NCBI GenBank assembly: GCA_047456305.1 | Contig: CP179888.1 | Coordinates: 189,307 to 253,306, forward strand | DNA length: 64,000 nucleotides | Source of the DNA: Candidatus Nealsonbacteria bacterium | GTDB taxonomy: Bacteria; Patescibacteriota; Minisyncoccia; Minisyncoccales; CAZKCU01 | Direction of reading: 5' to 3' | Part shown: piece after piece, positions 1 through 60,223 of the stretch | Layout: every line of letters starts with the position of its first letter | Position numbering within the stretch: the stretch's first letter is position 1 | Position numbers and translations under genes: made by a program | The notes under the pieces: model-generated | The model's database searches: none | Seen by the model: only the letters and a program-made list of their open reading frames with translations | Told to the model about the DNA's origin: nothing

Positions 1-23
1 AAAGTTTTTCCTAATTTCTATTT

Positions 24-551
24 TTATTTAAACATCTGAGAGTCAAAAGAAAGTTCAATGGTAAATTTAATTTCCCCCTCTTTTCCGATTGAAACCTCTG
101 TTAAATTAACATCTTTAACAAATTCTCCCCTTCTAAAAATCGAAAGTTGCTGGCCTAGACTCTCAAAGCTTTCGGCCTGACCAGAAATGGAAGCGTGCAA
201 TTTTCCAACATCTAAATCCAACTTAGAAAAGAAAATTTTAGGACAAGAAAGATTTTCAAGAAAGGTAAAGAAATTCCTGCTCAGCTGATGAGAAATAAGT
301 AAAGAATCAACTATCTCAATCTTTTTCTGGTATCCAAAAATTCTTTTCTCTAAAGCTTTTATTTCAGGAGTTTCTTTTTGGGATATAGCATCTTCTATAT
401 TTTGAAGAGTCCTGGCTGAATTTTTTTGAAAATAACCTAAGATAAAGTAACCCAAAACAGAAATAATAAGTAAAATTAAGGATAAATAGAATAAAATACT
501 AACTACTGGTAATTTAGGTTCAACTTTTTTTGGAATAATTTCTATTGCCAT
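24..551 (-). CDS. PilN-like type IV pilus assembly protein (bitopic membrane protein)
   Basis: 175-aa ORF 5 nt downstream of pilM. It has one N-terminal TM helix (VVSILFYLSLILLIISVLGYFILGYF) followed by a soluble domain, the same architecture as the PilN ORF at 32239-32766. Assigned by synteny and architecture only. Confidence 0.5.
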   Translation of the reverse strand: MAIEIIPKKVEPKLPVVSILFYLSLILLIISVLGYFILGYFQKNSARTLQNIEDAISQKETPEIKALEKRIFGYQKKIEIVDSLLISHQLSRNFFTFLENLSCPKIFFSKLDLDVGKLHASISGQAESFESLGQQLSIFRRGEFVKDVNLTEVSIGKEGEIKFTIELSFDSQMFK

Positions 552-556
552 ATTTT

Positions 557-1627
557 TTACTCAAAACCCCTGAGAGCCATTCCAACCGCTATGGCATAAG
601 AAGGCCCCATTTCTCTTAAAGTTTGTTCTAAAGCTGGGGGATAAAAAATTTCAGTAAAAGGGTTAGCTATCTCCACAGTTTTTTTGAGGCGCTTTAAAGA
701 GTATTCTTTCAGCCCGGGAAGTAGAGCTGATCCCCCGGCTAAAATAACTTTTTCTATTTCTTTTCCCTCAGCCTTATAGAAGTTCTGGGAGATTTTTTCT
801 ATCTCAGAAAGCAGCAAATCAATCAAGGGAGATAGAATTCTTCCAATTTTCATCTCCGAAAATCCAATACCATGTCTTTTTTTTAAGTCTTCAGCTTCAT
901 TATAACTAATATTTAAAGATTTGGATAGGAGGCGGGTTAATTCATTTCCCGAAACATCAAAGCTATAAGTTATTTTCAAGACTCCTTTTTCAATAATACT
1001 TATGGTAGTACTCTGAGCCCCGATATCTACCAAAGTAATTATACCTTTTTTATCTTTAATTAAAGACCTCAACAGGCCAAACACTTCTGCTTCCAAAGCC
1101 AGAAGTCGAATTTGAGAAAGTCGAGCAATTTCCTGATATTGATTAATAACTTCGTGAGGAACAGCTACTAAAAGGACTTTGAGCCCGGCCTTTTCTCGAT
1201 TAGAAACCTTACCCTCCTCAATTATTGACCAATCTAAAACTACTTCTGATAAAGGAAGGGGAATATGCTGACGGGCCTTAAATTGGACAGCTGAAGATAT
1301 TTCCTCTTGAGTCATCGGAGGTAACTCAAGAAAGGTAAAAAAAGTTGAAAAATCAGGAATGGAAAAAACAGCTTCTCTATTTTCAATCTTAGTTTCCTTA
1401 AAAATAGCTCCGATGGCTTTGGCAATGTCTTGGTTTGAAAGCAAAAGAGTGCTTTTTTCAAAAGTCCTAAATGGCTTTCTGTAAAACATCTGGGCGCCAA
1501 TTTCTCCATAATTCTCAAGTTTTATTCTCTCTCTCAGACCTGATAATTCAACAACTTTAATAGAGGTTGTCCCAATATCTATCCCTAAAAATCTTTTAAA
1601 GGGCTTTTTAAAGGGTGTCCATAACAT
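557..1627 (-). CDS. pilM: type IV pilus assembly protein PilM (actin-like ATPase fold)
   Basis: 356 aa. Actin/FtsA-like motifs 'LGIDIGTTSIKVVEL', 'LVDIGAQSTTISI' and 'ILAGGSALLPGL'. Paralogous to the ORF at 32763-33860 and followed by a PilN-like ORF. Confidence 0.8.
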   Translation of the reverse strand: MLWTPFKKPFKRFLGIDIGTTSIKVVELSGLRERIKLENYGEIGAQMFYRKPFRTFEKSTLLLSNQDIAKAIGAIFKETKIENREAVFSIPDFSTFFTFLELPPMTQEEISSAVQFKARQHIPLPLSEVVLDWSIIEEGKVSNREKAGLKVLLVAVPHEVINQYQEIARLSQIRLLALEAEVFGLLRSLIKDKKGIITLVDIGAQSTTISIIEKGVLKITYSFDVSGNELTRLLSKSLNISYNEAEDLKKRHGIGFSEMKIGRILSPLIDLLLSEIEKISQNFYKAEGKEIEKVILAGGSALLPGLKEYSLKRLKKTVEIANPFTEIFYPPALEQTLREMGPSYAIAVGMALRGFE

Positions 1628-1670
1628 TAAATATATTATATCATTTTAAAAAAGAAGGTCTATATCTAGT

Positions 1671-2429
1671 ATGTGGAAAAAGCTCAACATAAAAAACTTT
1701 GCTTTATCTCTTCTCTTTCCCCGGTTTTGCTTTTGCTGCCAGAAAGAAGGAAGTTATCTTTGTGAAGATTGTCTTTCTACTATTGAAATTTCTGAGCATC
1801 AATACTGTCTTTGTCAAAAGCCTCAAAAAATCTGGCAGGGAGGAAAATGTCAAAGATGTGTCTCCCGAAAACTCAACGGCCTTTATTTTGCTGCCCCCTA
1901 CCAAAATAGTTTAGTTCAAAACTTAATTCACAGCTTTAAATATAAGCCTTTTATAAAAGAGCTCTCAAAACCATTAGCTTCTTTAATAATAAATCATTTT
2001 CAATTACTCGACAATCCTCCTGATTTTTTTTACCCCGTTAAATCCCGCGAAGCGGGTGCGAAGCAATTTAACGGGGCTGAATTTCTTCTCCTGTCTATTC
2101 CTTTGGAGAAAAGGAAGTTAAAGGAGCGGGGATTTAATCAGGCAGAAGAATTAGCTAAAGAGCTCTCAAAATCCTTGAAAATCCCTTTGTTAAATGATGT
2201 CTTAATAAAAATAAAAGAAACTTTACCCCAAGTTGAACTTTCCGGGAAAAAAAGAGAAGAAAATATCAAAGGAGTATTTTTGGTAAAAAATACTGAGAAA
2301 ATAAGAGGAAGAAAAGTTCTTTTAGTTGACGATGTTTACACAACCGGCTCAACTATGGATGAGGGTGCCCGAGTTTTAAAAACGGCTGGAGCAAAAGAGG
2401 TTTGGGGAGTGGTAGTAGCCAGAGGATAA
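1671..2429 (+). CDS. comF: ComF family protein (zinc-ribbon N-terminus plus phosphoribosyltransferase fold)
   Basis: 252 aa. N-terminal CxxC...CxxC pairs and the C-terminal PRTase motif 'VLLVDDVYTTGSTMDE'. Carries an in-frame palindromic insertion at 2033-2076. Confidence 0.8.
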   Translation: MWKKLNIKNFALSLLFPRFCFCCQKEGSYLCEDCLSTIEISEHQYCLCQKPQKIWQGGKCQRCVSRKLNGLYFAAPYQNSLVQNLIHSFKYKPFIKELSKPLASLIINHFQLLDNPPDFFYPVKSREAGAKQFNGAEFLLLSIPLEKRKLKERGFNQAEELAKELSKSLKIPLLNDVLIKIKETLPQVELSGKKREENIKGVFLVKNTEKIRGRKVLLVDDVYTTGSTMDEGARVLKTAGAKEVWGVVVARG

Positions 2430-2458
2430 AAGAGAATTAGAAATTAAGAATTATGAAT

Positions 2459-2483
2459 AAAAAAACCGGCTTTGCCGGTTTTA
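2459..2483. terminator. bidirectional rho-independent terminator hairpin
   Basis: AAAAAACCGGC-TTT-GCCGGTTTT lies between comF (+) and tRNA-Ser (-), with A/T runs on both sides. Confidence 0.55.
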
Positions 2484-2489
2484 ACTTTG

Positions 2490-2575
2490 CGGAGGGGGTG
2501 AGATTTGAACTCACGAGGGCCTTTCAGCCCTAGTAGTTTTCAAGACTACTTGGGACAACCACTCCCGACCCCTCC
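2490..2575 (-). tRNA. tRNA-Ser(UGA), type II with long variable arm
   Basis: Hand-folded 86-nt cloverleaf. Acceptor GGAGGGG/CCCCTCC, anticodon loop CTTGAAA, variable arm GGGCTGAAAGGCCC, T-loop GTTCAAATC. No encoded CCA. Confidence 0.85.
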
Positions 2576-3589
2576 CAGCATAAGTTTGTATCTTTTCTGA
2601 ATGTTTGGATTATGGGTGCCTATTAAATCAAAGTACTTCATAATCTCGCTCTGATTTTCTAATTGGACATTTCTTTTGTTACGAATCTTTGGAGAAAAAT
2701 CTAATTCTTTCAATATTCTAACAACCGAAGAACAAAGTGATGTTGAGTAACTCGTAAAACATAATCGCGGATAACAATAAGTTCTCCCATTAATTCGGTG
2801 ATATTCGCGAAATAGACATCCATCTGTATCAATCAAACCTTTGATACAAGAAATTTTAAAAGATTTGTTCCTTTTAATCCATTCGGGAATATCCAAGTTT
2901 TGTTTTAATTTGTTGCCGATTTTTAAACCTATTGATTTACAAAACATTACTAATTTTGTGCGTGAAACAACAACATCAACTGTCGACTTATGTTTATTAT
3001 AAATACTTGGTTCTACTTTAAAAAGTTTTTTTATAAGACTCCTGACAAAAATACTATAAAGTTTCTCGGTCCCGCGATTTAGTGAAACAATCACTTGTTT
3101 TTTCGCAATTCCACCATCACCAATCATAATTCCGACAAATTCAGCTAGTTCTTCTGAGAAACGTGGTTTTTTAATTGGTTTAGTAACTCCAACAATGAGG
3201 TTTTTTCTATATTTGCCTTCTCTTTCCCACCACTCATACCATTTCTTTTTCCAATATTCAAGATCTCCTCCAATCCTTCCATATTTTTTTAATACCGCCT
3301 TTGCTCCTGCAGATGAACCAAGTGCTGTGTACCAATACCTGTCTCTTAACTCAATATTTGGAGGTATTTGGATTTTAGCTTTTTGAGACAAATCCTGAAC
3401 TACTCTCAGGGGCATAGAGTATTTTTCTCTTTTCCAGTCATTGAAAGTTCTTTTATGTACACCTATTATATCTGTGAGTTCAGCCCAAGAAAGTTTTAAT
3501 TTACCCACTGTTTTTGATAAAAAATGATACTGTTCACCAACTGGAAAAATAACTCTCTTTTCCATTTTAGAATTTAACAGTTCGGCCAT
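2546..3589 (-). CDS. free-standing LAGLIDADG-family homing endonuclease-like protein with N-terminal HTH
   Basis: 347 aa. Two LAGLIDADG motifs ('FVGIMIGDGGIA' and 'IKGLIDTDGCLF') and an N-terminal HTH-like segment 'LSWAELTDIIGVHKRTFNDWK'. The last ~30 nt overlap the 5' part of tRNA-Ser(UGA). Confidence 0.75.
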   Translation of the reverse strand: MAELLNSKMEKRVIFPVGEQYHFLSKTVGKLKLSWAELTDIIGVHKRTFNDWKREKYSMPLRVVQDLSQKAKIQIPPNIELRDRYWYTALGSSAGAKAVLKKYGRIGGDLEYWKKKWYEWWEREGKYRKNLIVGVTKPIKKPRFSEELAEFVGIMIGDGGIAKKQVIVSLNRGTEKLYSIFVRSLIKKLFKVEPSIYNKHKSTVDVVVSRTKLVMFCKSIGLKIGNKLKQNLDIPEWIKRNKSFKISCIKGLIDTDGCLFREYHRINGRTYCYPRLCFTSYSTSLCSSVVRILKELDFSPKIRNKRNVQLENQSEIMKYFDLIGTHNPNIQKRYKLMLGGVGSGCPK

Positions 3590-3663
3590 TATTCCATTTT
3601 AACACTTTAAAGATATAAAAACAACCTAACTTCTTCTCAGATTCTATCTAAAAATAAAAAAGG

Positions 3664-3752
3664 CGGAGAGGGTGGGATTCGAACCCACGAAGGGATATTA
3701 CTCCCTTACCTCATTAGCAGTGAGGGGCACTAGACCACTATGCGACCTCTCC
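3664..3752 (-). tRNA. tRNA-Ser(GCU), type II
   Basis: 89-nt cloverleaf. Acceptor GGAGAGG/CCTCTCC, anticodon loop CTGCTAA, long variable arm, T-loop GGTTCGAATCC. Confidence 0.85.
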
Positions 3753-3790
3753 TTATTTTAATTTTAACCATTAAAGTTGTTTAAGTCAAA

Positions 3791-3819
3791 TTGAAATTTA
3801 ATTAATTTTATGATATATT
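3791..3819 (+). promoter_or_regulatory. sigma70-like promoter for tRNA-Arg(GCG)
   Basis: TTGAAA, 17-nt spacer, TATATT. The -10 ends 12 nt before the tRNA 5' end. Confidence 0.5.
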
Positions 3820-3831
3820 TTATTAGTATTT

Positions 3832-3906
3832 GCCCTCGTAGTTCAATGGATAGAATGCGAACTTGCGGAGTTTGTGATAGAGGTTCGACTCCTCTCGAGG
3901 GCACCA
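3832..3906 (+). tRNA. tRNA-Arg(GCG), CCA encoded
   Basis: Acceptor GCCCTCG/CGAGGGC, anticodon stem CGAAC/GTTTG, loop TTGCGGA, T-arm AGAGG-TTCGACT-CCTCT, 3' ACCA. Confidence 0.8.
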
Positions 3907-4068
3907 TCGAGGAGAAGTCAACGATTTTCTGGTCGTCTCGCTTCGCTCGGCGACCAGATTGAAAGGAATTTTAGGCGAAAAAATCAATTGGCGGTAAAAG
4001 AAAATTTTTTCATTTTTAATTTACTCAAGGTCGATTTTTTAATTTTTTATTAAATTTAAATATAGATA

Positions 4069-4518
4069 ATGAAAATGCCTACTTGGATAATTTATGGAAT
4101 AATAGCCTCTTTATGTTTAGGAAGTTATGTGATTGCTTCTAAAATTGCTATTTCTGGAAAATATTTTGAAAGAATTAGTCCGGCCTGGACTGCCCTATTT
4201 ATGCTTTTAGGGATTGCGGTTATATTTATAATCGCTGTGATCAAAGAGGGCTTCCCAATGCCTATTAGCAAGCCTGATATTGGATTTGCTGTTTTGTCTG
4301 GCATTCTTTGGGGATTAGGAATGTATTTTGTTTTGAAGGCGATAGCTATTGGAGCAGATGTAGCGAAACTGACTCCACTTTATAATACGAACACTTTAGT
4401 AGCAGTACTCTTGGGAATTATTTTGCTACATGAGTTGCCCAAAGCAGGTGACATTGCAAGAGTGGCAGTTGGAGCAGTGTTAATTGTGGCTGGAGCAATT
4501 TTGGTAAGCTTCAGGTAG
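4069..4518 (+). CDS. small EamA/DMT-superfamily-like membrane transporter
   Basis: 149 aa with about five TM helices and a Gly/Ala-rich C-terminal helix 'VAVGAVLIVAGAILV', typical of an EamA half-domain. Family assignment is from composition and topology only. Confidence 0.5.
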   Translation: MKMPTWIIYGIIASLCLGSYVIASKIAISGKYFERISPAWTALFMLLGIAVIFIIAVIKEGFPMPISKPDIGFAVLSGILWGLGMYFVLKAIAIGADVAKLTPLYNTNTLVAVLLGIILLHELPKAGDIARVAVGAVLIVAGAILVSFR

Positions 4519-4621
4519 GGGCGTAGTATTTGAGAAAGATTTTGTGTGAGGCAGCAATAAACATAATAAACATTTTTGATTAATATTTATGAGTAAAAGC
4601 GGGTTTGTTTTATCTGAAAGA

Positions 4622-4739
4622 ATTTGCCGCCAAAGAAAAACTTGAAATTGTTAAAGAACGCGGCGAAGCCGCTCCGAATTTTTTGGGGCTTCATCGCCGC
4701 CAAAGGCGACGAAAAAAGTTCGAACTATTTTCAATATAG
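4622..4739 (+). repeat. ~120-nt GC-rich dispersed element (copy A) ending in the 21-nt box TTCGAACTATTTTCAATATAG
   Basis: Collinear with the reverse complement of 55877-56003. Shared blocks are GCCAAAGAAAAACTTGAAATTGTyAAAGAACGCGGCGA, GGGGCTT, a TCGCCGCC-nnn-GGCGnCGA hairpin and the terminal box. The box alone recurs at 24163-24183 (-) and 60954-60974 (+). Confidence 0.8.
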
Positions 4740-4759
4740 TGCACAGCAAATTTTCTTTT

Positions 4760-6943
4760 ATGAATCTCTCTACTCCCATTGAACAAATTCCTCGGGTTGG
4801 TCTCCAATATCAAAGAAGATTAAAAAAATTGGGGATAAAAACTGTTCAAGATCTTTTTTTTCATTTTCCTCATCGCTATGAGGATTTTTCAAAGATAATT
4901 CCAATTTCAAAAGCCGAGCCCGGTGGCCCTTTTTGTTTTCAAGGAAAAATTTTAGATATAAAAAACATCTACACTTCCAGAAAAAGAATGGTTTTAACCC
5001 AGGCAACTATTGGCGATAAAACCGGAAAACTAAAAGTAATTTGGTTTAACCAACCCTATCTCATCAACACTTTTAAAAAGGGGGATTATGTTTGTTTGGC
5101 AGGAAAAATAGCAAAAAAAGGAAGCGCAAAATATTTATCCAGCCCGGCCTATGAGAAAATTCCCCTAACACCTAATACCTATAACCTAACACCTCATCTA
5201 ACCCATACCGGAAGATTAATTCCGGTTTATCCAGAAACAGAAGGATTATCCTCAAGGTGGTTAAGATTTATTGTCAAACCTCTTCTGATAAAATTAAAAA
5301 ACCAAATTTCAGATTCTCTGCCAGAAAAAATCAGAAAAAAATATGAATTTTTACCCCTCCAAAAAGCAATTTGGCAAATCCATTTTCCTGACTCTTTGAA
5401 GTTAGCCCAAGAAGCAAAAAAAAGATTTGCCTTTGAGGAGTTATTTAATCTTTCACTTTTTGTTTTAAGAGAAAGAGTGAAATTAGCCAGAGAAAAAGCA
5501 ATTCCCATTCCTTTAAATCTGGCTCTTATTAAAGAATTTACTAAAAGCTTACCTTTTAAACTAACCGATGCTCAAAAGAAATCTGCCTGGCAGATATTAA
5601 AAGATTTAGAAAAACCTAGACCAATGAACCGGCTTTTGGAGGGTGACGTTGGCTCTGGGAAAACAGTGGTTGCAGCTATGGCTGCCTTAAATGTAGCTAA
5701 AGCTGGTTTTCAAATCGCTTTTATGGCACCGACAGAAATTTTAGCCAAACAGCATTATAAAACCCTAAATGGATTTTTAAACCCCGTCCCCTATGCTCGG
5801 CGTGATTTAACCAAACAGAATGCTAAAGGCTTAGGGGGCGGGGTGAATATTGGATTAATCACCGGCAAAGAAAGTTATTATGACAATAAAAAAATTACCA
5901 GAAAAGAACTTTTGAGAAAATTGGAGGAAGGGAAAATTGATATTTTAATTGGTACTCACGCCTTAGTCCAGGAAGGGGTAAAATTTGGAAAACTGGCTTT
6001 GGTAATCTTAGATGAACAACATCGTTTCGGCGTAGAGCAACGGGCCCGTCTCTGCCAACAACCAAAGTTTATCCCTCATCTTTTGTCAATGACTGCCACT
6101 CCTATCCCCCGCACCCTGTCTTTAACAGTTTTTGGCGACCTTGATTTATCTATTATTGATGAATTGCCCAAAGGTAGAAAAAAAATAATTACAAAAATCG
6201 TCCAGTCGAAAGATAAAAAAGAAACCTATAATTTTATCAGAGCCGAAGTTAAAGAGAACCGCCAAGTTTTTGTAATCTGTCCTCGGATTGAACCCGTCAA
6301 AACCTCTCCAGAAAATTTAGACGGTGAACTTTCACAGCAGGTATTAAGTTGGATGGAGGTAAAAGCAGTAAAAGATGAATATCAGAAACTTTCAAAAGAA
6401 ATTTTCCCTGACTTAAAAATCGGCATGCTCCACGGCAAAATGAAAACTCAAGAAAAGGAAAAAGTAATGAAAGATTTTAAAGATAAGAAAATTGATATTT
6501 TAGTATCAACTTCCGTCGTTGAAGTGGGGGTTGATATTCCTAATGCGACAGTAATGATGATTGAGGGTTCAGAAAAATTCGGTTTAGCCCAACTTCATCA
6601 GTTCAGAGGTAGAATAGGACGTTCTGATTTTCAATCTCACTGCTTTCTATTTACAGATGCGCTAGGCGTCGTAACAAACCGACGACTAAGAGCACTTCTC
6701 TCTTGCGAGAATGGTTTTGAGTTAGCGGAAAAAGATTTGGCAATCCGGGGACCCGGAGATTTTTCTGGTTCAAGGCAATGGGGAATTCCCGACCTGGCTA
6801 TGACTTCTCTAAAAGATATATTTTTAGTTGAAAAAGTAAGACAAATTGCAAAAAAATTATTAGAAGAGGACCCAGAATTAAAAAAATATCCCCTATTGCA
6901 AAAGAGATTAAAAAATTTTGGAGAAAAAATTCACCTGGAGTAA
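4760..6943 (+). CDS. recG: ATP-dependent DNA helicase RecG
   Basis: Motifs: wedge/OB N-terminus, helicase motif I 'GDVGSGKTVVA', DEQH box 'ILDEQHRFG', 'SMTATPIPRT' and 'HQFRGRIGR'. The ORF track starts at GTG 4739, inside the repeat. ATG 4760 (MNLSTPIEQ) is the preferred start. Confidence 0.9.
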   Translation: MNLSTPIEQIPRVGLQYQRRLKKLGIKTVQDLFFHFPHRYEDFSKIIPISKAEPGGPFCFQGKILDIKNIYTSRKRMVLTQATIGDKTGKLKVIWFNQPYLINTFKKGDYVCLAGKIAKKGSAKYLSSPAYEKIPLTPNTYNLTPHLTHTGRLIPVYPETEGLSSRWLRFIVKPLLIKLKNQISDSLPEKIRKKYEFLPLQKAIWQIHFPDSLKLAQEAKKRFAFEELFNLSLFVLRERVKLAREKAIPIPLNLALIKEFTKSLPFKLTDAQKKSAWQILKDLEKPRPMNRLLEGDVGSGKTVVAAMAALNVAKAGFQIAFMAPTEILAKQHYKTLNGFLNPVPYARRDLTKQNAKGLGGGVNIGLITGKESYYDNKKITRKELLRKLEEGKIDILIGTHALVQEGVKFGKLALVILDEQHRFGVEQRARLCQQPKFIPHLLSMTATPIPRTLSLTVFGDLDLSIIDELPKGRKKIITKIVQSKDKKETYNFIRAEVKENRQVFVICPRIEPVKTSPENLDGELSQQVLSWMEVKAVKDEYQKLSKEIFPDLKIGMLHGKMKTQEKEKVMKDFKDKKIDILVSTSVVEVGVDIPNATVMMIEGSEKFGLAQLHQFRGRIGRSDFQSHCFLFTDALGVVTNRRLRALLSCENGFELAEKDLAIRGPGDFSGSRQWGIPDLAMTSLKDIFLVEKVRQIAKKLLEEDPELKKYPLLQKRLKNFGEKIHLE

Positions 6944-6944
6944 A

Positions 6945-8507
6945 TTATTTCCTTACTTTCTCAGTTGGCCAAAAACCCATGTATTTGCCAAACATCCACC
7001 TGGTTTGGGCATCCAAAGCTGGTAAAGAAGTAAAAAATATCATAATTAAGGGAAGTAAAAACCACTCGGTTGCTAAAACCAGATATTTAACGCGGCCGTA
7101 TTGAGGTGGCTTTGGAGGAAGTAAAAGGATACTAAAATAAGCTGAACTAATTAATCCGACCATGGCTAAGGTTAAAATACGACTTATTATCTTGGGTAAA
7201 TTATAGGAAATTAAAGTCTGGGAAAAATCAGGTCCTCCCAAAACTAAAGGCAACCAACCTAACAAAAAAATCATAATTGAAACAGTTGCCCAAGACCAAT
7301 GGCTTTCAATTATTTCAAATCCCTGAGAAAATTTTTTTGAAAGAGGGATTTTTTTGTTCTTCAGGAAACCAAAAAGGAAAAAAGCAATATCCCCTACTCC
7401 GTAAGCCCACCTTCGTTGCTGTTTGTAAATATTAATTATTGTCCGGCGAAAATTCTTTGCGACATTAGCATCCATCGAAACCGGATAAAAAATTGGACAA
7501 ACCTGGTAATCTCCGTCATATTTTAAAAAACATTGCCAAAAAATTCTCGAATCATCAGAAACAACCCCAGAATCTTTAAAGCCGACTTCAAAGAGAGCCT
7601 GAAAACTCATTGAATGAGAAGAAAAAGTAACTAACTTTTCCGGCCTTTCCTGGTTCATAGTATGCCAAAAAGTTGAAGAAAAAGAAAAAACTCGAGAAAG
7701 TACTGGAGCTACCCAGATATTATTAATGTAAAGAGGAATGGGCTGGAAACTAGTTCTAGTCGGTTTGGGACAAGTTAAGTAATGCCAGGTTACACAGCTG
7801 AAGTATTTTTTAAAAACACAAGTATCAGCATCCAAAGAAGAAACAATAATATTTTGGTAGGGAATTTTCAGGGGATCAATAATGAGAAGTTTTGCTTTTT
7901 TAGCCGCCCAGGTCTCATTGGAACCTTTGCCGGCAATTTCTCCTAGCAAATTTGCCGGATGCCAGGTTATTAAAAACCTAAAGAATTTATTCCCAAACTC
8001 TTTCTCAATGACTTGGCTAGTTTTTGCAACCTCTTTTTTTACTTTTTCCTCACAAGCTAAAACCACAATCATTTTATTTTTTGGATAATCAGTATTTTCC
8101 AAGGCCAAAAAAGTATCCCGAATAATCTCTAAAGGTTCTTTATACATTGGAAAGATAATTAAATGATAAATATCTTTCCAGTTTTTAAGATTTAATGTGC
8201 CAGATGGAAAATGTAAATTATTTAGTTTTCTAATCCAATCAATTTTTTCGTGCTCTTTCATTTTTTGGTAGCCGGCCCGGAGATGAAAGGAAAGATAAAT
8301 TGTTCTAAAAAACCAAAAAATTACAAAAAGGATAATAAAAATGGCAATTAAAAAGGGTTTTTTCCAAGAAAAAATAATAACCAAAATTAAAGTCGCCCAG
8401 GACAAGGCCCCGGGAAGAACTTCAAAAAACCTATAAACCATCTTATCTTTTGAATTTTTAAGGTCGGCGGCTCGAGAAATTTTTAAATAAAATTTATTCT
8501 TATCCAT
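6945..8507 (-). CDS. membrane-bound family 2 glycosyltransferase (processive, cellulose/chitin-synthase-like)
   Basis: Multiple TM helices flank a GT2 domain with 'SSLDADT' (DxD) and the 'QQRRWAYG' (QxxRW) motif. The ORF-track N-terminus (to 8594) runs antisense through tRNA-Glu, so the start was moved to Met30 (ATG at 8507). Confidence 0.75.
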   Translation of the reverse strand: MDKNKFYLKISRAADLKNSKDKMVYRFFEVLPGALSWATLILVIIFSWKKPFLIAIFIILFVIFWFFRTIYLSFHLRAGYQKMKEHEKIDWIRKLNNLHFPSGTLNLKNWKDIYHLIIFPMYKEPLEIIRDTFLALENTDYPKNKMIVVLACEEKVKKEVAKTSQVIEKEFGNKFFRFLITWHPANLLGEIAGKGSNETWAAKKAKLLIIDPLKIPYQNIIVSSLDADTCVFKKYFSCVTWHYLTCPKPTRTSFQPIPLYINNIWVAPVLSRVFSFSSTFWHTMNQERPEKLVTFSSHSMSFQALFEVGFKDSGVVSDDSRIFWQCFLKYDGDYQVCPIFYPVSMDANVAKNFRRTIINIYKQQRRWAYGVGDIAFFLFGFLKNKKIPLSKKFSQGFEIIESHWSWATVSIMIFLLGWLPLVLGGPDFSQTLISYNLPKIISRILTLAMVGLISSAYFSILLLPPKPPQYGRVKYLVLATEWFLLPLIMIFFTSLPALDAQTRWMFGKYMGFWPTEKVRK

Positions 8508-8536
8508 TAGTTGTTTTTTGATATTTAAAATAGAGG

Positions 8537-8608
8537 CGGCCCCATGGGTAGTCGAAACCCAGTTTTTTGGATGAAAACCAAATGTCCTAACCACTAGACG
8601 ATGGGGCC
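8537..8608 (-). tRNA. tRNA-Glu(UUC)
   Basis: 72 nt. Acceptor GGCCCCA/TGGGGCC, anticodon stem TTTGG/CCAAA, loop TTTTCAT, T-arm TGGGT-TTCGACT-ACCCA. Confidence 0.85.
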
Positions 8609-8633
8609 AAACTATATTAGTTTATCTTAAAAA

Positions 8634-8662
8634 TTGAAAAAAAGCAAGAAAAAAGTTAAGAT
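8634..8662 (+). promoter_or_regulatory. sigma70-like promoter of tsaD-valS (near-leaderless geometry)
   Basis: TTGAAA, 17 nt, TAAGAT. The -10 ends 7 nt before the tsaD ATG at 8670, so the predicted +1 falls within 1 nt of the start codon. Confidence 0.45.
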
Positions 8663-8669
8663 AAATTAC

Positions 8670-9719
8670 ATGATAATTTTAGCTATTGAAACTTCTTGTG
8701 ATGATACCTGTATAGCAATAGTAGAAGCTAAGGGACAGAAAAAACCTTGTTTTAGTATCTTGTCCAATATTGTTTCCTCCCAGGTAAAAATTCACCAGAA
8801 ATGGGGAGGAGTATATCCAACATTAGCAAAAAGAGAACATCAGAAAAATTTGCCTTTGGTATTGAAAAGAGCTTTAAACAAAGCCAAGGACCCAAAAGCT
8901 GATTTAGTTGCCATAACTGTTGGGCCAGGATTAGATCCTTGTTTGTGGACAGGAGTGAATTTTGCTAAAGATTTAGCCAAAAAATTAGACCTGTCAATAA
9001 TTCCTGTAAATCATATTGAGGCTCATATCTATGCCAACTGGCTTTCGCCGGTTGGCATATCTCAAATCTTTCCTGCGATTTGTTTAGTGGTTAGTGGAGG
9101 GCATACTCAATTGATTTTAATGAAAAATCACGGAAATTACCAAATCCTCGGTGAAACAAGAGATGACGCGGCTGGCGAATGCTTTGATAAAATAGCCAGA
9201 ATTTTAGGGTTAGGATATCCCGGCGGTCCATTAATTGCTGCCGAGGCAGCAAAACTAAAAACTAAAAACTATCAACTAAAAATTAAATTGCCGAGGCCGA
9301 TGATCTACCAAAGAAATTATGATTTCAGTTTTTCAGGGCTAAAAACAGCAGTTTTATATAATTTCAAAAGCCAATCAGAAAAAATCAGGAAATCAAAAAA
9401 ATATATCCAAGCAATATCTGCTGAAGCTCAACAAGCAATAGTTGATGTTTTGATTAAAAAAACCATTCGAGCTGCCAAAGATTATAAAGCAAAAACTATA
9501 ATTCTTGGCGGCGGGGTTGTAGCCAATAATGAATTGCGTAAGCAATTTATGTCAAATGTCAAATGTCAAATGTCAAATGTCAAATTCTTGGTTCCGCCAA
9601 AAAAATTCTGTACTGATAATGCGACAATAGTGGCGGTAGCTGGCTATTTTCATTACTTAAGAGTTGAAATCAAAAATTGGCAAGAAATTAAAGCTGAAGC
9701 TAACCTCAGGATATGTTAA
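8670..9719 (+). CDS. tsaD: tRNA N6-adenosine threonylcarbamoyltransferase TsaD
   Basis: Motifs 'ILAIETSCDDT', 'VGPGLDPCL', 'PVNHIEAHI', 'VSGGHTQL' and 'CTDNA'. The ORF-track start (TTG 8634) is the -35 box, so ATG 8670 is preferred. Contains a heptamer tandem repeat at 9549-9585. Confidence 0.9.
   Translation: MIILAIETSCDDTCIAIVEAKGQKKPCFSILSNIVSSQVKIHQKWGGVYPTLAKREHQKNLPLVLKRALNKAKDPKADLVAITVGPGLDPCLWTGVNFAKDLAKKLDLSIIPVNHIEAHIYANWLSPVGISQIFPAICLVVSGGHTQLILMKNHGNYQILGETRDDAAGECFDKIARILGLGYPGGPLIAAEAAKLKTKNYQLKIKLPRPMIYQRNYDFSFSGLKTAVLYNFKSQSEKIRKSKKYIQAISAEAQQAIVDVLIKKTIRAAKDYKAKTIILGGGVVANNELRKQFMSNVKCQMSNVKFLVPPKKFCTDNATIVAVAGYFHYLRVEIKNWQEIKAEANLRIC
9549..9585 (+). repeat. tandem heptamer (ATGTCAA) x5.3 inside tsaD
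   Basis: atgtcaaatgtcaaatgtcaaatgtcaaatgtcaaat, translated as MSNVKCQMSNVKF in a region that looks like an insertion into the TsaD C-terminal part. Confidence 0.95.
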
Positions 9720-26977: not shown

Positions 26978-27064
26978 GCCGGGGTGGTGGAATCGCTAGA
27001 CACGAAGGACTTAAAATCCTTTGGAGGAAATCCCTCCGTGCGGGTTGGAGTCCCGCCCCCGGCA
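26978..27064 (+). tRNA. tRNA-Leu(UAA), type II
   Basis: 87 nt. Acceptor GCCGGGG/CCCCGGC, anticodon stem AAGGA/TCCTT, loop CTTAAAA, long variable arm, T-arm with GTTGGAGTC. Confidence 0.85.
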
Positions 27065-27077
27065 CATTTTTTAAAAT

Positions 27078-27824
27078 ATGGGAAATGTATATACAAGGCA
27101 CATTAATCACAACTTCTTTAAAAAATGGAACTCCAAGATGAGTTATGTTTTAGGCTATATTGTAGCCGATGGTTGTATTGCAATAAGCAAAGATAGAAAA
27201 AGCCATCCTTTTACATTAAATATAACTTCTGCTGATTTGAAGCACTTATATTTGCTTAAAGAAACACTAGAATCTGAACATAAGATTAGTAAAAAATCTC
27301 GAAAAGCGGATAATAACGGATATCAATTACAAATTCGTAACCATATAATAACTAAAGATTTGATGAATTTAGGGATATTCCCTAGGAAAACATATAATTT
27401 AAATCCTATAAAAGTTCCAGAAAAATATTTCCCTGATTTTATTCGGGGATTTTTTGATGGTGACGGTTCAGTTTATATTTATAAAGTTAACGGAGTTCCG
27501 CAAATTAAGGCTTCGTTTAGCAATCCGAGCTTACCTTTTATTGCCAAACTCAACCAAGATCTTTGTAGAAAAATGGGAATTTCTATGAAAACCATCCATG
27601 AAGATAAGAATAAAAGAAGAAAGATTCCTTTATACTATATTGATTTTTATATCGATGATTGTGAAAAATTTGCTGAATTTATGTACCGAAACAACTCCTC
27701 TTTATTTCTTCTTCGCAAATGCAAAATTTTTGAAAAATGGAAATTGATAAAAAGGCGACATTATATAAAACAAAATTATCCTTCAAAAGTAGGCTGGCAT
27801 TTAAACCAAAAAGTCTTCACTTAA
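27078..27824 (+). CDS. free-standing LAGLIDADG-family homing endonuclease-like protein
   Basis: 248 aa. Two motifs, 'LGYIVADGCIA' and 'IRGFFDGDGSV'. Starts 13 nt after tRNA-Leu(UAA). The true start may be the internal Met at 27139. Confidence 0.75.
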   Translation: MGNVYTRHINHNFFKKWNSKMSYVLGYIVADGCIAISKDRKSHPFTLNITSADLKHLYLLKETLESEHKISKKSRKADNNGYQLQIRNHIITKDLMNLGIFPRKTYNLNPIKVPEKYFPDFIRGFFDGDGSVYIYKVNGVPQIKASFSNPSLPFIAKLNQDLCRKMGISMKTIHEDKNKRRKIPLYYIDFYIDDCEKFAEFMYRNNSSLFLLRKCKIFEKWKLIKRRHYIKQNYPSKVGWHLNQKVFT

Positions 27825-59276: not shown

Positions 59277-59304
59277 GCCCCGCTAGCTCAATTGGTAGAG
59301 CAGG
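59277..59304 (+). pseudogene. tRNA 5'-half relic (acceptor 5' strand plus complete D-arm only)
   Basis: GCCCCGC-TA-GCTC-AATTGGTA-GAGC-AGG, after which the sequence becomes the A-rich leader of the next ORF. No matching 3' half (GCGGGGC) follows. Confidence 0.6.
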
Positions 59305-59316
59305 AAATAAAAAATA

Positions 59317-60075
59317 ATGACCCAAAAAGACAAAGTAAAATATTCAAAATTAAAAGCAGAAGCGATTCAACTCCGGAAAAAAGGATTAAGCTATAACGAA
59401 ATTAAAAAAGAAATAAATGTATCCAAAAGCACTTTAAGCCTTTGGCTGAAAACTATTCCCTTAACCCCTGAATTAAAGAAACGATTTTATACTGCACGAA
59501 TTTTAAATTTGGCTAGAGGTCCTCAAAGTCAAAAAGAAAGAAGACTTCGAGAAATCACTAAAATTATTAACGAAGCAGAGAAAGAGATTGAACTTCCTCT
59601 CTCCCTTAAAACTTACCGTCTTTTAGGGACAGCATTGTATTGGGCCGAAGGAAATAAAACTAAAGGCTTTGAAGTTACAAATTCTGACCCTCATTTTATA
59701 CTTTTTATGGTCCGTTGGTTTGAAAAAGTGTTCAGGATTTCTCCTGAGAAATTAAAAGCGAGCTTAAATATTTATCCTCAGCAGAACGAACAAAAAATAA
59801 AAAAATTCTGGTCCCAATTAACAAACGTTCCTCTTGAGAATTTTAATAAAAGTTTTGTAAAACCACCAAATAGAGGTTATAAGAAAAACAATCTTTATTA
59901 CGGAACAATAAAAATTAGAGTTCCAAAAGGAACTGATACGCGCCATCGAGTTTTTGGATGGATAAAAAAAGTTTTGAAAGATATCACTCCGAAAGTAGAA
60001 TTAGTTGAAAAAGAATGGAAATCACTTAAAGAAACTCCTCGTCCAGCTAATATTCCAGAAAATATTGAAATTTAA
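59317..60075 (+). CDS. HTH plus degenerate LAGLIDADG-like putative homing endonuclease
   Basis: 252 aa. N-terminal resolvase-type HTH 'LSYNEIKKEINVSKSTLSLWLK' and a single LAGLIDADG-like motif 'LLGTALYWAEGNKTK'. Lies between the tRNA relic and tRNA-Lys. The family call is tentative. Confidence 0.45.
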   Translation: MTQKDKVKYSKLKAEAIQLRKKGLSYNEIKKEINVSKSTLSLWLKTIPLTPELKKRFYTARILNLARGPQSQKERRLREITKIINEAEKEIELPLSLKTYRLLGTALYWAEGNKTKGFEVTNSDPHFILFMVRWFEKVFRISPEKLKASLNIYPQQNEQKIKKFWSQLTNVPLENFNKSFVKPPNRGYKKNNLYYGTIKIRVPKGTDTRHRVFGWIKKVLKDITPKVELVEKEWKSLKETPRPANIPENIEI

Positions 60076-60077
60076 AG

Positions 60078-60149
60078 GCCCCCATAACTCAATTGGCAGA
60101 GTAGCGGACTCTTAATCCGTAAATCCAGGTTCGAGTCCTGGTGGGGGCA
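60078..60149 (+). tRNA. tRNA-Lys(CUU)
   Basis: 72 nt starting 2 nt after the preceding stop codon. Acceptor GCCCCCA/TGGGGGC, anticodon stem GCGGA/TCCGT, loop CTCTTAA, T-arm CCAGG-TTCGAGT-CCTGG. Confidence 0.85.
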
Positions 60150-60223
60150 CATTTCAGTATTTTTAAAAAGATTTAATCAATTTGAAGGTGGGAAATTAAA
60201 ATGAGACCAACCAAAACAGAAAT

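Follow-up and report, generated by a model that had tools for sequence, protein, structure and literature searches.

A probable intron-less LAGLIDADG homing endonuclease gene at tRNA-Ser genes of Candidatus Nealsonbacteria

Introduction

In a 64,000-nt stretch of Candidatus Nealsonbacteria DNA (the window), an open reading frame (ORF) for a protein with LAGLIDADG motifs lies between two tRNA-Ser genes, all on the minus strand, and runs into the second of them. Such a gene might serve its host, be carried passively, or use the tRNA genes as sites into which it homes, and the question raised by the locus is which of these applies. A first-pass annotation, made from the sequence alone, had taken the linkage to suggest that tRNA genes or their spacers serve as homing sites. 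Comparison with related genomes supports that suggestion, and we consider it likely that the ORF is a free-standing LAGLIDADG homing endonuclease gene, contained in neither an intron nor an intein, with the 5' edge of tRNA-Ser genes as its presumed target.

Results

The locus and the encoded protein

ARAGORN located 24 tRNA genes in the window. The features of the locus are given below; L-numbers (L001, L088 and so on) are labels of the compared loci or contigs.

2489-2575, minus strand: tRNA-Ser(UGA) gene, the 'type I' allele (ARAGORN)
2546-3589, minus strand: helix-turn-helix (HTH)-LAGLIDADG endonuclease gene, 347 aa, ATG start
3428-3496, minus strand: codons of the N-terminal HTH, about residues 32-54 (weak Pfam HTH_23 match; helices of the model)
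3110-3142, minus strand: LAGLIDADG motif 1, EFVGIMIGDGG, residues 150-160, catalytic Asp158 (family conservation)
2819-2848, minus strand: LAGLIDADG motif 2, CIKGLIDTDG, residues 248-257, catalytic Asp256 (family conservation)
3596-3624, minus strand: putative own promoter of the ORF (consensus match and family conservation)
3662-3752, minus strand: tRNA-Ser(GCU) gene (ARAGORN; 57 bits with the Rfam tRNA model)
3761-3789, minus strand: promoter-like site before tRNA-Ser(GCU) (consensus match)
3832-3906, plus strand: tRNA-Arg(GCG) gene (ARAGORN)
2462-2482, minus strand: terminator-like hairpin after tRNA-Ser(UGA), AAAACCGGCAAAGCCGGTTTT followed by a T run
2288-4758, no strand: recombination tract relative to L088 (blastn and alignment)

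ARAGORN, Pfam and AlphaFold/Foldseek confirmed the earlier description of a double-motif LAGLIDADG ORF with an HTH between same-strand tRNA-Ser genes, and the overlap, which had been put at about 30 nt, is exactly 30 nt: the last 30 nt of the ORF are nt 1-30 of tRNA-Ser(UGA). The last codons (tail GGVGSGCPK) and the stop are read from GGAGGGGTCGGGAGTGGTTGTCCCAAG, beginning at tRNA position 1, and the TAG stop coincides with tRNA nt 28-30, within the anticodon stem.

The LAGLIDADG fold held up in the profile search that had been proposed as a check, with Pfam LAGLIDADG_3 above its cut-off (E value, 3e-6; 27.7 bits against a gathering cut-off of 22.5), and the structure model agreed. The N-terminal HTH was matched weakly by Pfam HTH_23, and HTH_3 is precomputed for many homologues. 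An AlphaFold model of the 347-aa protein, made with 27 homologues as input, reached a predicted local distance difference test (pLDDT) value of 84.8 and consists of an N-terminal helical domain, with helices at residues 19-53 in the HTH region (pLDDT of about 90), followed by two canonical LAGLIDADG domains (domain 1, H146-157/E/E/H172-190/E/E/H211-219; domain 2, H242-256/E/E/H283-295/E/E/H313-322). Foldseek returned 98 matches in the PDB at an E value of ≤1e-3, and the 50 listed were all LAGLIDADG-fold proteins, led by I-Tsp061I (E value, 5e-11; TM of 0.75 on the target) and including the TliVMA intein endonuclease, I-OnuI, the bifunctional I-AniI and the bI3 maturase. WhiA also appeared, at rank 44, and the Pfam WhiA models scored under their cut-offs on the window protein. 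Because the model is disordered in the tRNA-encoded tail (pLDDT of <50), this tail is probably not needed for function.

In all 83 family members compared (41 to 74% identical to the window protein), E150, G153, G157, D158 and G159 of motif 1 and C248, G251, D254, T255, D256 and G257 of motif 2 are invariant, with one conserved acidic residue per motif end, D158 in GDGG and D256 in DTDG. The ORF is not of the intron- or intein-encoded kind, having its own start and promoter and an uninterrupted tRNA gene downstream, and none of the Rfam intron families matched between 2300 and 4000 at an E value of ≤1.

A large family attached to tRNA-Ser genes

A hypothetical protein encoded in a Candidatus Nealsonbacteria genome matches the window protein at 100% identity. 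In a collection clustered at 90%, 925 relatives were found at an E value of ≤1e-3; every match with a named source came from Patescibacteria-type genomes, and the 120 relatives listed were 48 to 74% identical over nearly the full length. A profile search of 1.84 billion representatives gave 600 clusters at an E value of ≤1e-30, which puts the family at about 600 clusters at 50% identity, and in a one-genome-per-species scan at least 564 contigs encoded a relative. Current annotation nearly always calls these proteins hypothetical or helix-turn-helix proteins. Viral contigs held only distant (23 to 33% identical) generic LAGLIDADG relatives and no close one, and a phage origin or vector was rejected on that ground.

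When the tRNA context was scored with ARAGORN on 83 loci, a same-strand tRNA-Ser gene was found directly 3' of the family ORF in about 77, a far stronger link than the first-pass annotation had supposed. The two genes overlap by up to 54 nt or are separated by up to about 38 nt, and most of the exceptions are contig ends. The closest relatives of the window protein are partnered with tRNA-Ser(UGA), which the ORF usually overruns, and most other members are partnered with tRNA-Ser(GCU), one with tRNA-Ser(CGA). A neighbour-joining tree (all trees here are neighbour-joining trees of single proteins) set a UGA-linked branch apart from a large GCU-linked branch, with a few switches. The broader gene neighbourhoods vary among loci (RecG/ComF, LeuRS/NYN, or CCA-adding enzyme/IF-2), and two copies can coexist in one genome at separate tRNA-Ser genes (L008/L064 and L047/L048). 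The ORFs are almost always intact.

The constant partner of the window ORF is tRNA-Ser(UGA). The neighbouring tRNA-Ser(GCU) was rejected for that role; it lies downstream of tRNA-Ser(UGA) in L004 and is lacking in L006. A stop codon that always coincides with the UGA anticodon was likewise rejected as a rule, being true of L001, L004 and L006 but not generally; across the family the ORF stops at tRNA nt 8, 13, 20, 28, 34, 44 or 50, or ahead of the tRNA. In the tRNA-Ser(CGA)-linked locus L047 (1330-2640), the ORF reads through the whole tRNA, and upstream of it lie a second family promoter and an ATG fused to a fragment of a tRNA-Ser D arm and anticodon stem, which looks like a deleted sister copy. 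In L188 (4380-5744 and 5933-6000), L189 and L190, the same 348-aa protein (74% identical to that of the window) is encoded with differing upstream DNA, which in L188 includes a gene for a large serine recombinase.

Empty sites and gene history

To sample the locus independently of the ORF, the window RecG was used as a query on metagenome contigs, which yielded 80 loci with RecG identities of 62 to 98%. Lineages with RecG at least 97% identical were merged, and the resulting occupancy counts are drawn from one clade around the window's genome. Most of the 80 loci had the arrangement tRNA-Arg(GCG), about 80 nt, tRNA-Ser(GCU), 5 to 30 nt and tRNA-Ser(UGA), with no family ORF. The site before tRNA-Ser(GCU) could be scored in 50 lineages, of which 33 had no insert, 8 had a family ORF and 9 had another insert; for the site before tRNA-Ser(UGA), the 34 lineages comprised 23 with no insert, none with a family ORF and 11 with another insert. 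The comparison of tRNA clusters that had been proposed for the first-pass annotation thus found empty sites to be common and the ORF not universal.

Carriers are dispersed over the RecG tree. The window, with its ORF before tRNA-Ser(UGA), is sister to L088, which has no ORF, and the next branch is L093, with an ORF before tRNA-Ser(GCU). In L088, the two tRNA-Ser genes are separated by only 14 nt, and the flanks are nearly the same as those in the window, at 100.000% identity over window positions 1-2287 (2287 nt) and 99.15% over positions 4759-9000 (4245 nt). Between these flanks lies a divergent tract of 2.47 kb in which the parts common to both are only 90 to 93% identical by blastn and alignment and in which neither the ORF cassette (2511-3662) nor an 850-nt segment (3908-4758) has an L088 counterpart. 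The latter, between tRNA-Arg(GCG) and recG, holds an ORF for a 149-aa membrane protein (4069-4518).

The nearest relatives of the window ORF, at 70 to 74% identity, are found in genomes whose RecG, PilM and ComF are 51 to 63% identical to those of the window, while the sibling with 98% RecG identity has no ORF. L001 shows 70% identity for the ORF against 62% for RecG, 57% for PilM and 51% for ComF, and L188 shows 74% against 63% for PilM and 57% for ComF. Gene and host are also incongruent between other pairs (RecG of 0.81 against ORF of 0.58 for L108 and L120; RecG of 0.63 against ORF of 0.75 for L108 and L030). One lineage carries a premature stop: in L155 and L158 (about 2249-2251, minus strand), where the ORF precedes tRNA-Ser(GCU), the codon of the otherwise invariant Trp121 is replaced in frame by TGA (WYEW*E). 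The ORF is otherwise intact and identical in the two samples; it is either a fresh pseudogene or a gene in which UGA is read through or recoded as Trp. The family gene is missing from most close relatives, including a sibling with 99 to 100% identical flanks, and is therefore dispensable. Dispensable, patchily distributed, exchanged by recombination and at times apparently decaying, yet with its active site kept, it resembles a homing endonuclease gene, not a domesticated protein.

Mosaic tRNA alleles and insertion scars

The tRNA genes at the cluster also differ between close relatives. The window tRNA-Ser(UGA) is only 65% identical to the L088 allele and is 87 to 94% identical to those of L094, L001, L004, L113, L090 and L010. 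The window allele is of type I, with a D arm that is unusual in its stem of 4 bp and loop of 7 nt, and scores below 25.6 bits with the Rfam tRNA model. Type I is a real tRNA: nine alleles form a cloverleaf with a long variable arm, with compensatory changes at 9 of the 28 pairs and no broken pair. In the RecG sample, the identities of tRNA-Ser(UGA), tRNA-Ser(GCU) and tRNA-Arg(GCG) are uncoupled from RecG identity, whereas that of tRNA-Glu(UUC) follows it down to 84%, and the alleles at the cluster are therefore mosaic. Relative to L088, both the tRNA-Ser(UGA) allele and the 2.47-kb tract accompany the ORF, as expected for co-conversion of flanks, of which the nuclease may be the cause. The tRNA allele was nevertheless rejected as a strict part of the cassette, since identical alleles occur with and without the ORF.

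At least five types of tRNA-Ser(UGA) allele were seen among genomes with RecG at least 75% identical (window 2489-2575, L088, L113, L014 and L159). Some alleles of the clade have a short, class-I-like D arm and a poor Rfam tRNA score, and several have a CCTGAAA anticodon loop, implying C at position 33 and not the near-universal U. The tRNA-Arg(GCG) gene at 3832-3906 differs from that of L088 from about the D loop on (79% identity), and the spacer upstream of it is identical at 79 of 80 positions.

In L113, compared with the window, the cassette replaces the stretch from the -35 box to tRNA position 1. The tRNA-Ser(GCU) of the window is an empty site for the GCU-linked branch. Upstream of the ORF, L006 and L031 hold cut-off tRNA-Ser 5' pieces (nt 1-18 and 1-20) that still have the old -10 box in front of them, 37 to 71 nt ahead of the ORF start. 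In L188 to L190, a mini-hairpin of tRNA-Ser acceptor ends (GGAGGGGTGG...ACCTCCTC) stands right before the ORF promoter. The tRNA-Ser pieces and the hairpin are insertion scars, and most loci show no such trace.

Anatomy of the cassette

Promoters and terminators were called as consensus matches. The promoter ahead of the window ORF (3624-3587) reads TTGTTT, 17 nt, TGtTAAAAT (an extended -10 box), GGAATA and ATG. A -10 box with RGR (TAnnnT-RGR) ending 6 nt before the ATG was found in 61 of 83 family loci, typically as TGnTAnAAT-GGAGAT-ATG, against a -10-like hexamer at the matching position in 4 of 45 other ORFs of the window. We infer from this pattern a private ORF promoter that would give a leaderless or nearly leaderless mRNA. 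In a sub-branch of the GCU branch (L019, L021, L048, L060, L061, L077 and L074), the promoter is followed by ATA and not ATG (TATAATGGAGAT ATA GCA GAA..), and the ORF restarts in another frame at a downstream ATG (MRVLFPKG..), about 25 to 35 nt past the ATA site; the first 8 or so residues are dispensable on this account.

The two branches end differently. Of 59 empty GCU sites, 53 carry TTGACT, 17 nt and TAAAAT. Members of the GCU branch have conserved codons near the C terminus, ..AAA CAC TTG AAA AGA TAT.., that supply a -35 box; their stop codon usually lies 17 to 25 nt ahead of the tRNA, and a TATAAT-like box past the stop codon ends 8 to 12 nt before the tRNA. Such an embedded tRNA promoter was present in 23 of the 61 loci of the GCU branch, where 0.6 would be expected, and in none of 16 UGA-branch loci. 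Because C-terminal codons and post-stop bases together give the -35/-10 pattern, the GCU-branch cassette may be one that rebuilds the tRNA promoter that it displaces. In the UGA branch, to which the window belongs, most members have a conserved NPKH motif 35 to 36 nt ahead of the tRNA and lack a stop codon of their own.

In the window, the promoter-like TTGACT, 17 nt, TAAAAT (3789-3761) ends 8 nt before tRNA-Ser(GCU), and the terminator-like hairpin (2482-2462) is also conserved in the ORF-less L088; between the two, nothing terminator-like of note was found. Since these two elements bracket the ORF with none between them, the ORF appears to sit inside a two-tRNA operon, and the likely transcription unit consists of promoter, tRNA-Ser(GCU), the ORF's own promoter, the ORF, tRNA-Ser(UGA) and terminator. 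The tRNA-Ser(UGA) would then mature from the ORF transcript, at whose 3' end it lies. If RNase P cut at tRNA position 1, the ORF would lose its stop codon, and translation and tRNA maturation of one transcript would be mutually exclusive; speculatively, this may keep nuclease levels low.

Other tRNA-linked ORFs and cargo

The first-pass annotation had listed two further endonuclease-like ORFs beside tRNA genes. Both do abut tRNA genes, and the first is a LAGLIDADG ORF; the other is recognisable by its HTH only.

26978-27065: tRNA-Leu(UAA) gene, 13 nt before the start of the second ORF
27078-27824, plus strand: second LAGLIDADG ORF, 248 aa, without an HTH (LAGLIDADG_3/_1)
59277-59304, plus strand: tRNA-Lys 5'-half remnant (GCCCCGCTAGCTCAATTGGTAGAGCAGG), 12 nt ahead of the third ORF
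59317-60075, plus strand: third ORF, 252 aa, HTH and an unclassified domain with an LYWAEG motif
60078-60150: intact tRNA-Lys(CUU) gene, 2 nt past the end of the third ORF

Homologues of the second ORF were found in the equivalent place in L009 (64.5% identity) and between tRNA-Cys and tRNA-Leu in L063 (30%); no tRNA-Leu 3' remnant was seen downstream of it in the window. In L006 (6789-7295), an ORF between tRNA-Cys(GCA) and tRNA-Leu(UAA) overlaps the first 47 nt of tRNA-Leu and may represent a third nuclease class in a similar position, given its weak HNH match.

The third ORF belongs to a family with 1188 matches, the 120 listed being 64 to 90% identical. An attempt to place it among the LAGLIDADG proteins did not succeed: Pfam gave HTH families only, a PDB sequence-profile search found nothing past the HTH, and Foldseek found nothing significant for a model of pLDDT 73. 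Against the main family, hhalign gave an E value of 0.003 but a probability of 11%, as a weak colinear match in which LYWAEG is aligned to LAGLIDADG motif 1. A tRNA-Lys 5'-half remnant of 28 to 33 nt lies 4 to 12 nt before the ATG in 4 of 5 loci of this family (present in the window, L168 [2461-3325], L191 and L194; absent from L193), and a complete tRNA-Lys(CUU) comes after the ORF or overlaps its end. With a displaced 5' half upstream and a complete tRNA-Lys downstream, the third ORF is inserted inside tRNA-Lys(CUU) with the tRNA rebuilt, which is the clearest insertion signature in the data set. Empty sites are known from L006 and L009, where tRNA-Arg(UCG) and tRNA-Lys(CUU) are only about 20 nt apart. 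The third ORF lacks space for its own promoter and probably uses that of the tRNA. Between the window and L168 the alleles are swapped, each remnant being similar to the intact tRNA-Lys of the other locus, which may reflect reciprocal target and resistance alleles.

Relatives of the third ORF (28 to 34% identity) hold further tRNA-linked positions. They lie before or overlapping tRNA-Arg(GCG) in L095, L096, L119, L149 and L166, with some reading through the whole tRNA; before tRNA-Ser(GCU) in L112 and L134; and 13 to 20 nt 3' of tRNA-Glu(UUC), on the same strand, in L103, L127, L149, L150, L153, L154, L159, L115 and L116. About 60 nt upstream of the intact tRNA-Arg(GCG) of L113, 12 nt of the 5' end of this tRNA are repeated (TTGCCCTCGTAG; about 4870-4950, plus strand), which may be the footprint of a lost third-family element.

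The spacer between the two tRNA-Ser genes holds several kinds of other genes in relatives (L113, 2654-3594; L013, 3735-5162; L077, 3282-4427; L024, 4039-5581), namely, a Doc/Fic-type toxin with an HTH partner, small GIY-YIG ORFs, a nucleotidyltransferase/HEPN pair, a Fic protein and a cytidine-deaminase-like gene. Second family copies were sought in the 1.4-kb tRNA-Ser gaps of L013, L024 and L077, where only unrelated genes were found, and no degraded family copy was found in the 1-kb gaps of L093 and L113, which are taken up by genes for a membrane protein, a Doc/Fic toxin pair and a GIY-YIG protein.

Discussion

A homing cassette and its rivals

The reading that we consider likely is that the monomeric protein, with its two LAGLIDADG domains and N-terminal HTH, would cut ORF-free tRNA-Ser loci at or near the junction of the upstream spacer or promoter with the first part of the tRNA gene. 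The gene-carrying allele would serve as the template for repair of the break, and repair would copy the cassette together with variable flanking DNA, often including the neighbouring tRNA-Ser allele. Insertion would be harmless, as the anatomy of the cassette suggests, with a promoter of its own and a complete tRNA always directly downstream. In the GCU branch, the last codons (..CAC TTG AAA..) and the post-stop bases would act as a new tRNA promoter. In the UGA branch, there is no room for a promoter and the frame runs into the tRNA, which would have to be excised from the 3' end of the ORF transcript.

Several observations weigh against this. ORF divergence in the GCU branch partly tracks the host (Spearman, 0.50), much of the family history appears vertical, and the protein is conserved as well as RecG or better; strong conservation and a partly vertical history leave room for a benefit to the host. 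A near-identical copy in a distant genome was not found, the best relative of the window ORF being 74% identical. Ordinary homologous recombination after DNA uptake, with no nuclease, could yield the 2.47-kb tract between the window and L088. Decayed copies were seen in just the one lineage, and tRNA remnants exceed the shuffle background in just 3 of about 80 loci. The tRNA-Ser(GCU) gene of the window, which no ORF precedes, is 100% identical to that of L113, which a family ORF does precede, and type I tRNA-Ser(UGA) alleles occur without the ORF in L094, L090, L113 and L124.

Some of these points would be expected of a domesticated LAGLIDADG protein, kept by host selection and not by its own spread, with a role at tRNA-Ser genes such as regulation of the operon through the HTH or repair and maintenance of the loci; WhiA would be a parallel and is among the structural matches, if at rank 44. 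Full-length conservation equal to or above that of neighbouring housekeeping genes, nearly always intact ORFs, a fixed position with a conserved promoter and partial congruence with the host tree all agree with such a role, but a gene missing from most close relatives, L088 included, is hence dispensable, and both catalytic Asp residues are invariant. Separate paralogues at separate tRNA-Ser genes of one genome also fit a cis-tied gene better than a trans factor, tRNA remnants and allele swaps indicate insertion events, and one lineage (L155/L158) carries a nonsense copy, so we regard domestication as unlikely. We would think it rather improbable that the ORF is a passive passenger in a recombination hot spot at the tRNA cluster, perhaps a once-active element or one moved by another system. 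Cargo of other kinds does occupy the inter-tRNA spacers of relatives (Doc/Fic pair and GIY-YIG in L113 and L013, membrane proteins in L093, Fic in L077, and third-family ORFs), non-family inserts make up 9 of 50 GCU and 11 of 34 UGA sites, the tract that separates the window from L088 includes a second, unrelated insertion, and L188 has its large serine recombinase gene upstream of the ORF. A passenger would not be expected, however, to keep its catalytic residues invariant and its ORF intact almost everywhere over about 600 clusters at 50% identity, nor to form site-faithful branches at a fixed distance to tRNA-Ser (NPKH at 35 to 36 nt in most of the UGA branch; stop usually at 17 to 25 nt in the GCU branch).

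Some LAGLIDADG proteins assist the splicing of group I introns, and an RNA-acting protein, for example a maturase-like helper in pre-tRNA-Ser processing or folding, is a further alternative. The bI3 maturase and bifunctional I-AniI are among its structural matches, cotranscription of ORF and tRNA is very probable, and the linked tRNA-Ser(UGA) is unusual in its D arm and scores weakly with Rfam. Such tRNA alleles also occur without the ORF, though, most relatives mature tRNA-Ser without such a protein, no intron-like RNA was detected in 2300-4000 and the catalytic residues are conserved, which makes this explanation very improbable.

The homing reading might extend beyond tRNA-Ser. A broader version, held tentatively and with less than even confidence for its claims taken jointly, would make tRNA genes the main landing sites in Patescibacteria for at least two large, undescribed families of single-gene cassettes. 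These would keep the tRNA working without an intron, the HTH-LAGLIDADG family at tRNA-Ser position 1 by supplying promoters, and the third-ORF family, which would enter tRNA-Lys at about nt 30 and adjoin tRNA-Arg, -Ser and -Glu, by using the displaced 5' half as a leader and bringing a replacement. Their activity would drive a fast mosaic turnover of tRNA alleles, including cleavage-resistant variants with odd D arms, and the amount of nuclease would depend on tRNA processing wherever the ORF has no stop codon ahead of the tRNA.

Relation to known systems

The closest known behaviour would be the intron-less homing of the free-standing endonucleases of T-even phages (SegB, SegF, SegG and MobE), with SegB as the best match. 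SegB of T4 is a free-standing endonuclease in a phage tRNA cluster that recognises a tRNA T-arm motif and spreads with neighbouring tRNA genes by gene conversion (PMC2330249). Like these enzymes, the window ORF is a stand-alone gene outside any intron or intein, like SegB it lies in a tRNA cluster, and its family shows comparable hallmarks in presence or absence between close relatives and replacement of flanking tRNA alleles. SegB differs in being a phage GIY-YIG enzyme with experimentally demonstrated cleavage, whereas the family described here, known from sequence and a model, combines LAGLIDADG domains with an HTH, occurs in cellular Patescibacteria and is limited to tRNA-Ser, with a fixed 5' distance, frequent overlap and built-in promoters for itself and the tRNA.

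Within the candidate phyla radiation (CPR), LAGLIDADG endonucleases have been surveyed as insertions in rRNA genes, in group I introns and other insertion sequences, with no mention of tRNA (PMC11270868), and no description of a tRNA-linked arrangement of homing endonucleases in CPR was found in the literature. Those enzymes share the superfamily, the organism group and a conserved RNA gene as the target with the present family. They are encoded inside the rRNA gene, in sequence that is removed from the RNA; the tRNA-Ser-linked ORFs, in contrast, lie outside the mature tRNA without an intron, leave the tRNA gene uninterrupted and have an added N-terminal HTH. The best structural matches (I-Tsp061I, the I-DmoI type, TliVMA and PI-PfuI) are likewise two-domain monomers with one acidic residue per motif. 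These archaeal intron and intein enzymes are only 15 to 21% identical to the window protein and have another genetic setting, and the window protein carries an additional domain of about 140 residues (HTH and a Trp-rich linker) at its N terminus.

WhiA also combines two LAGLIDADG-like domains and an HTH in one bacterial protein. Its HTH is C-terminal, its catalytic residues are lost and it is near-universal in its clades; the present family has an N-terminal HTH, invariant catalytic Asp residues and a patchy distribution. Integrative elements that target tRNA genes also use the tRNA as a landing site and leave it functional afterwards, and the third family, in displacing the 5' half of tRNA-Lys and supplying a new one, resembles them, as do the few main-family loci with left-over tRNA-Ser 5' pieces. 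Classical elements of this type are integrase-driven and duplicate the 3' part of the tRNA, whereas the cassettes in the window involve no integrase, duplicate the 5' part and have a single gene as cargo.

Implications

These comparisons point to an intron-free tRNA-gene niche for homing endonucleases in CPR/Patescibacteria, which would be second to rRNA-gene insertions, and to a large undescribed family that may occupy it. For annotation, ORFs that enter tRNA genes in Patescibacteria are to be taken as real and not as gene-calling errors. If the homing reading is true, it would explain mosaic tRNA alleles between near-identical strains of tiny genomes and would offer a natural selfish gene whose promoter logic keeps an essential RNA gene expressed, together with a natural overlap in which tRNA 5' processing would take off the stop codon of the upstream gene. 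It would also mean that Patescibacteria hold many new long-site nucleases with an HTH module, the targets of which would be predictable from empty sites.

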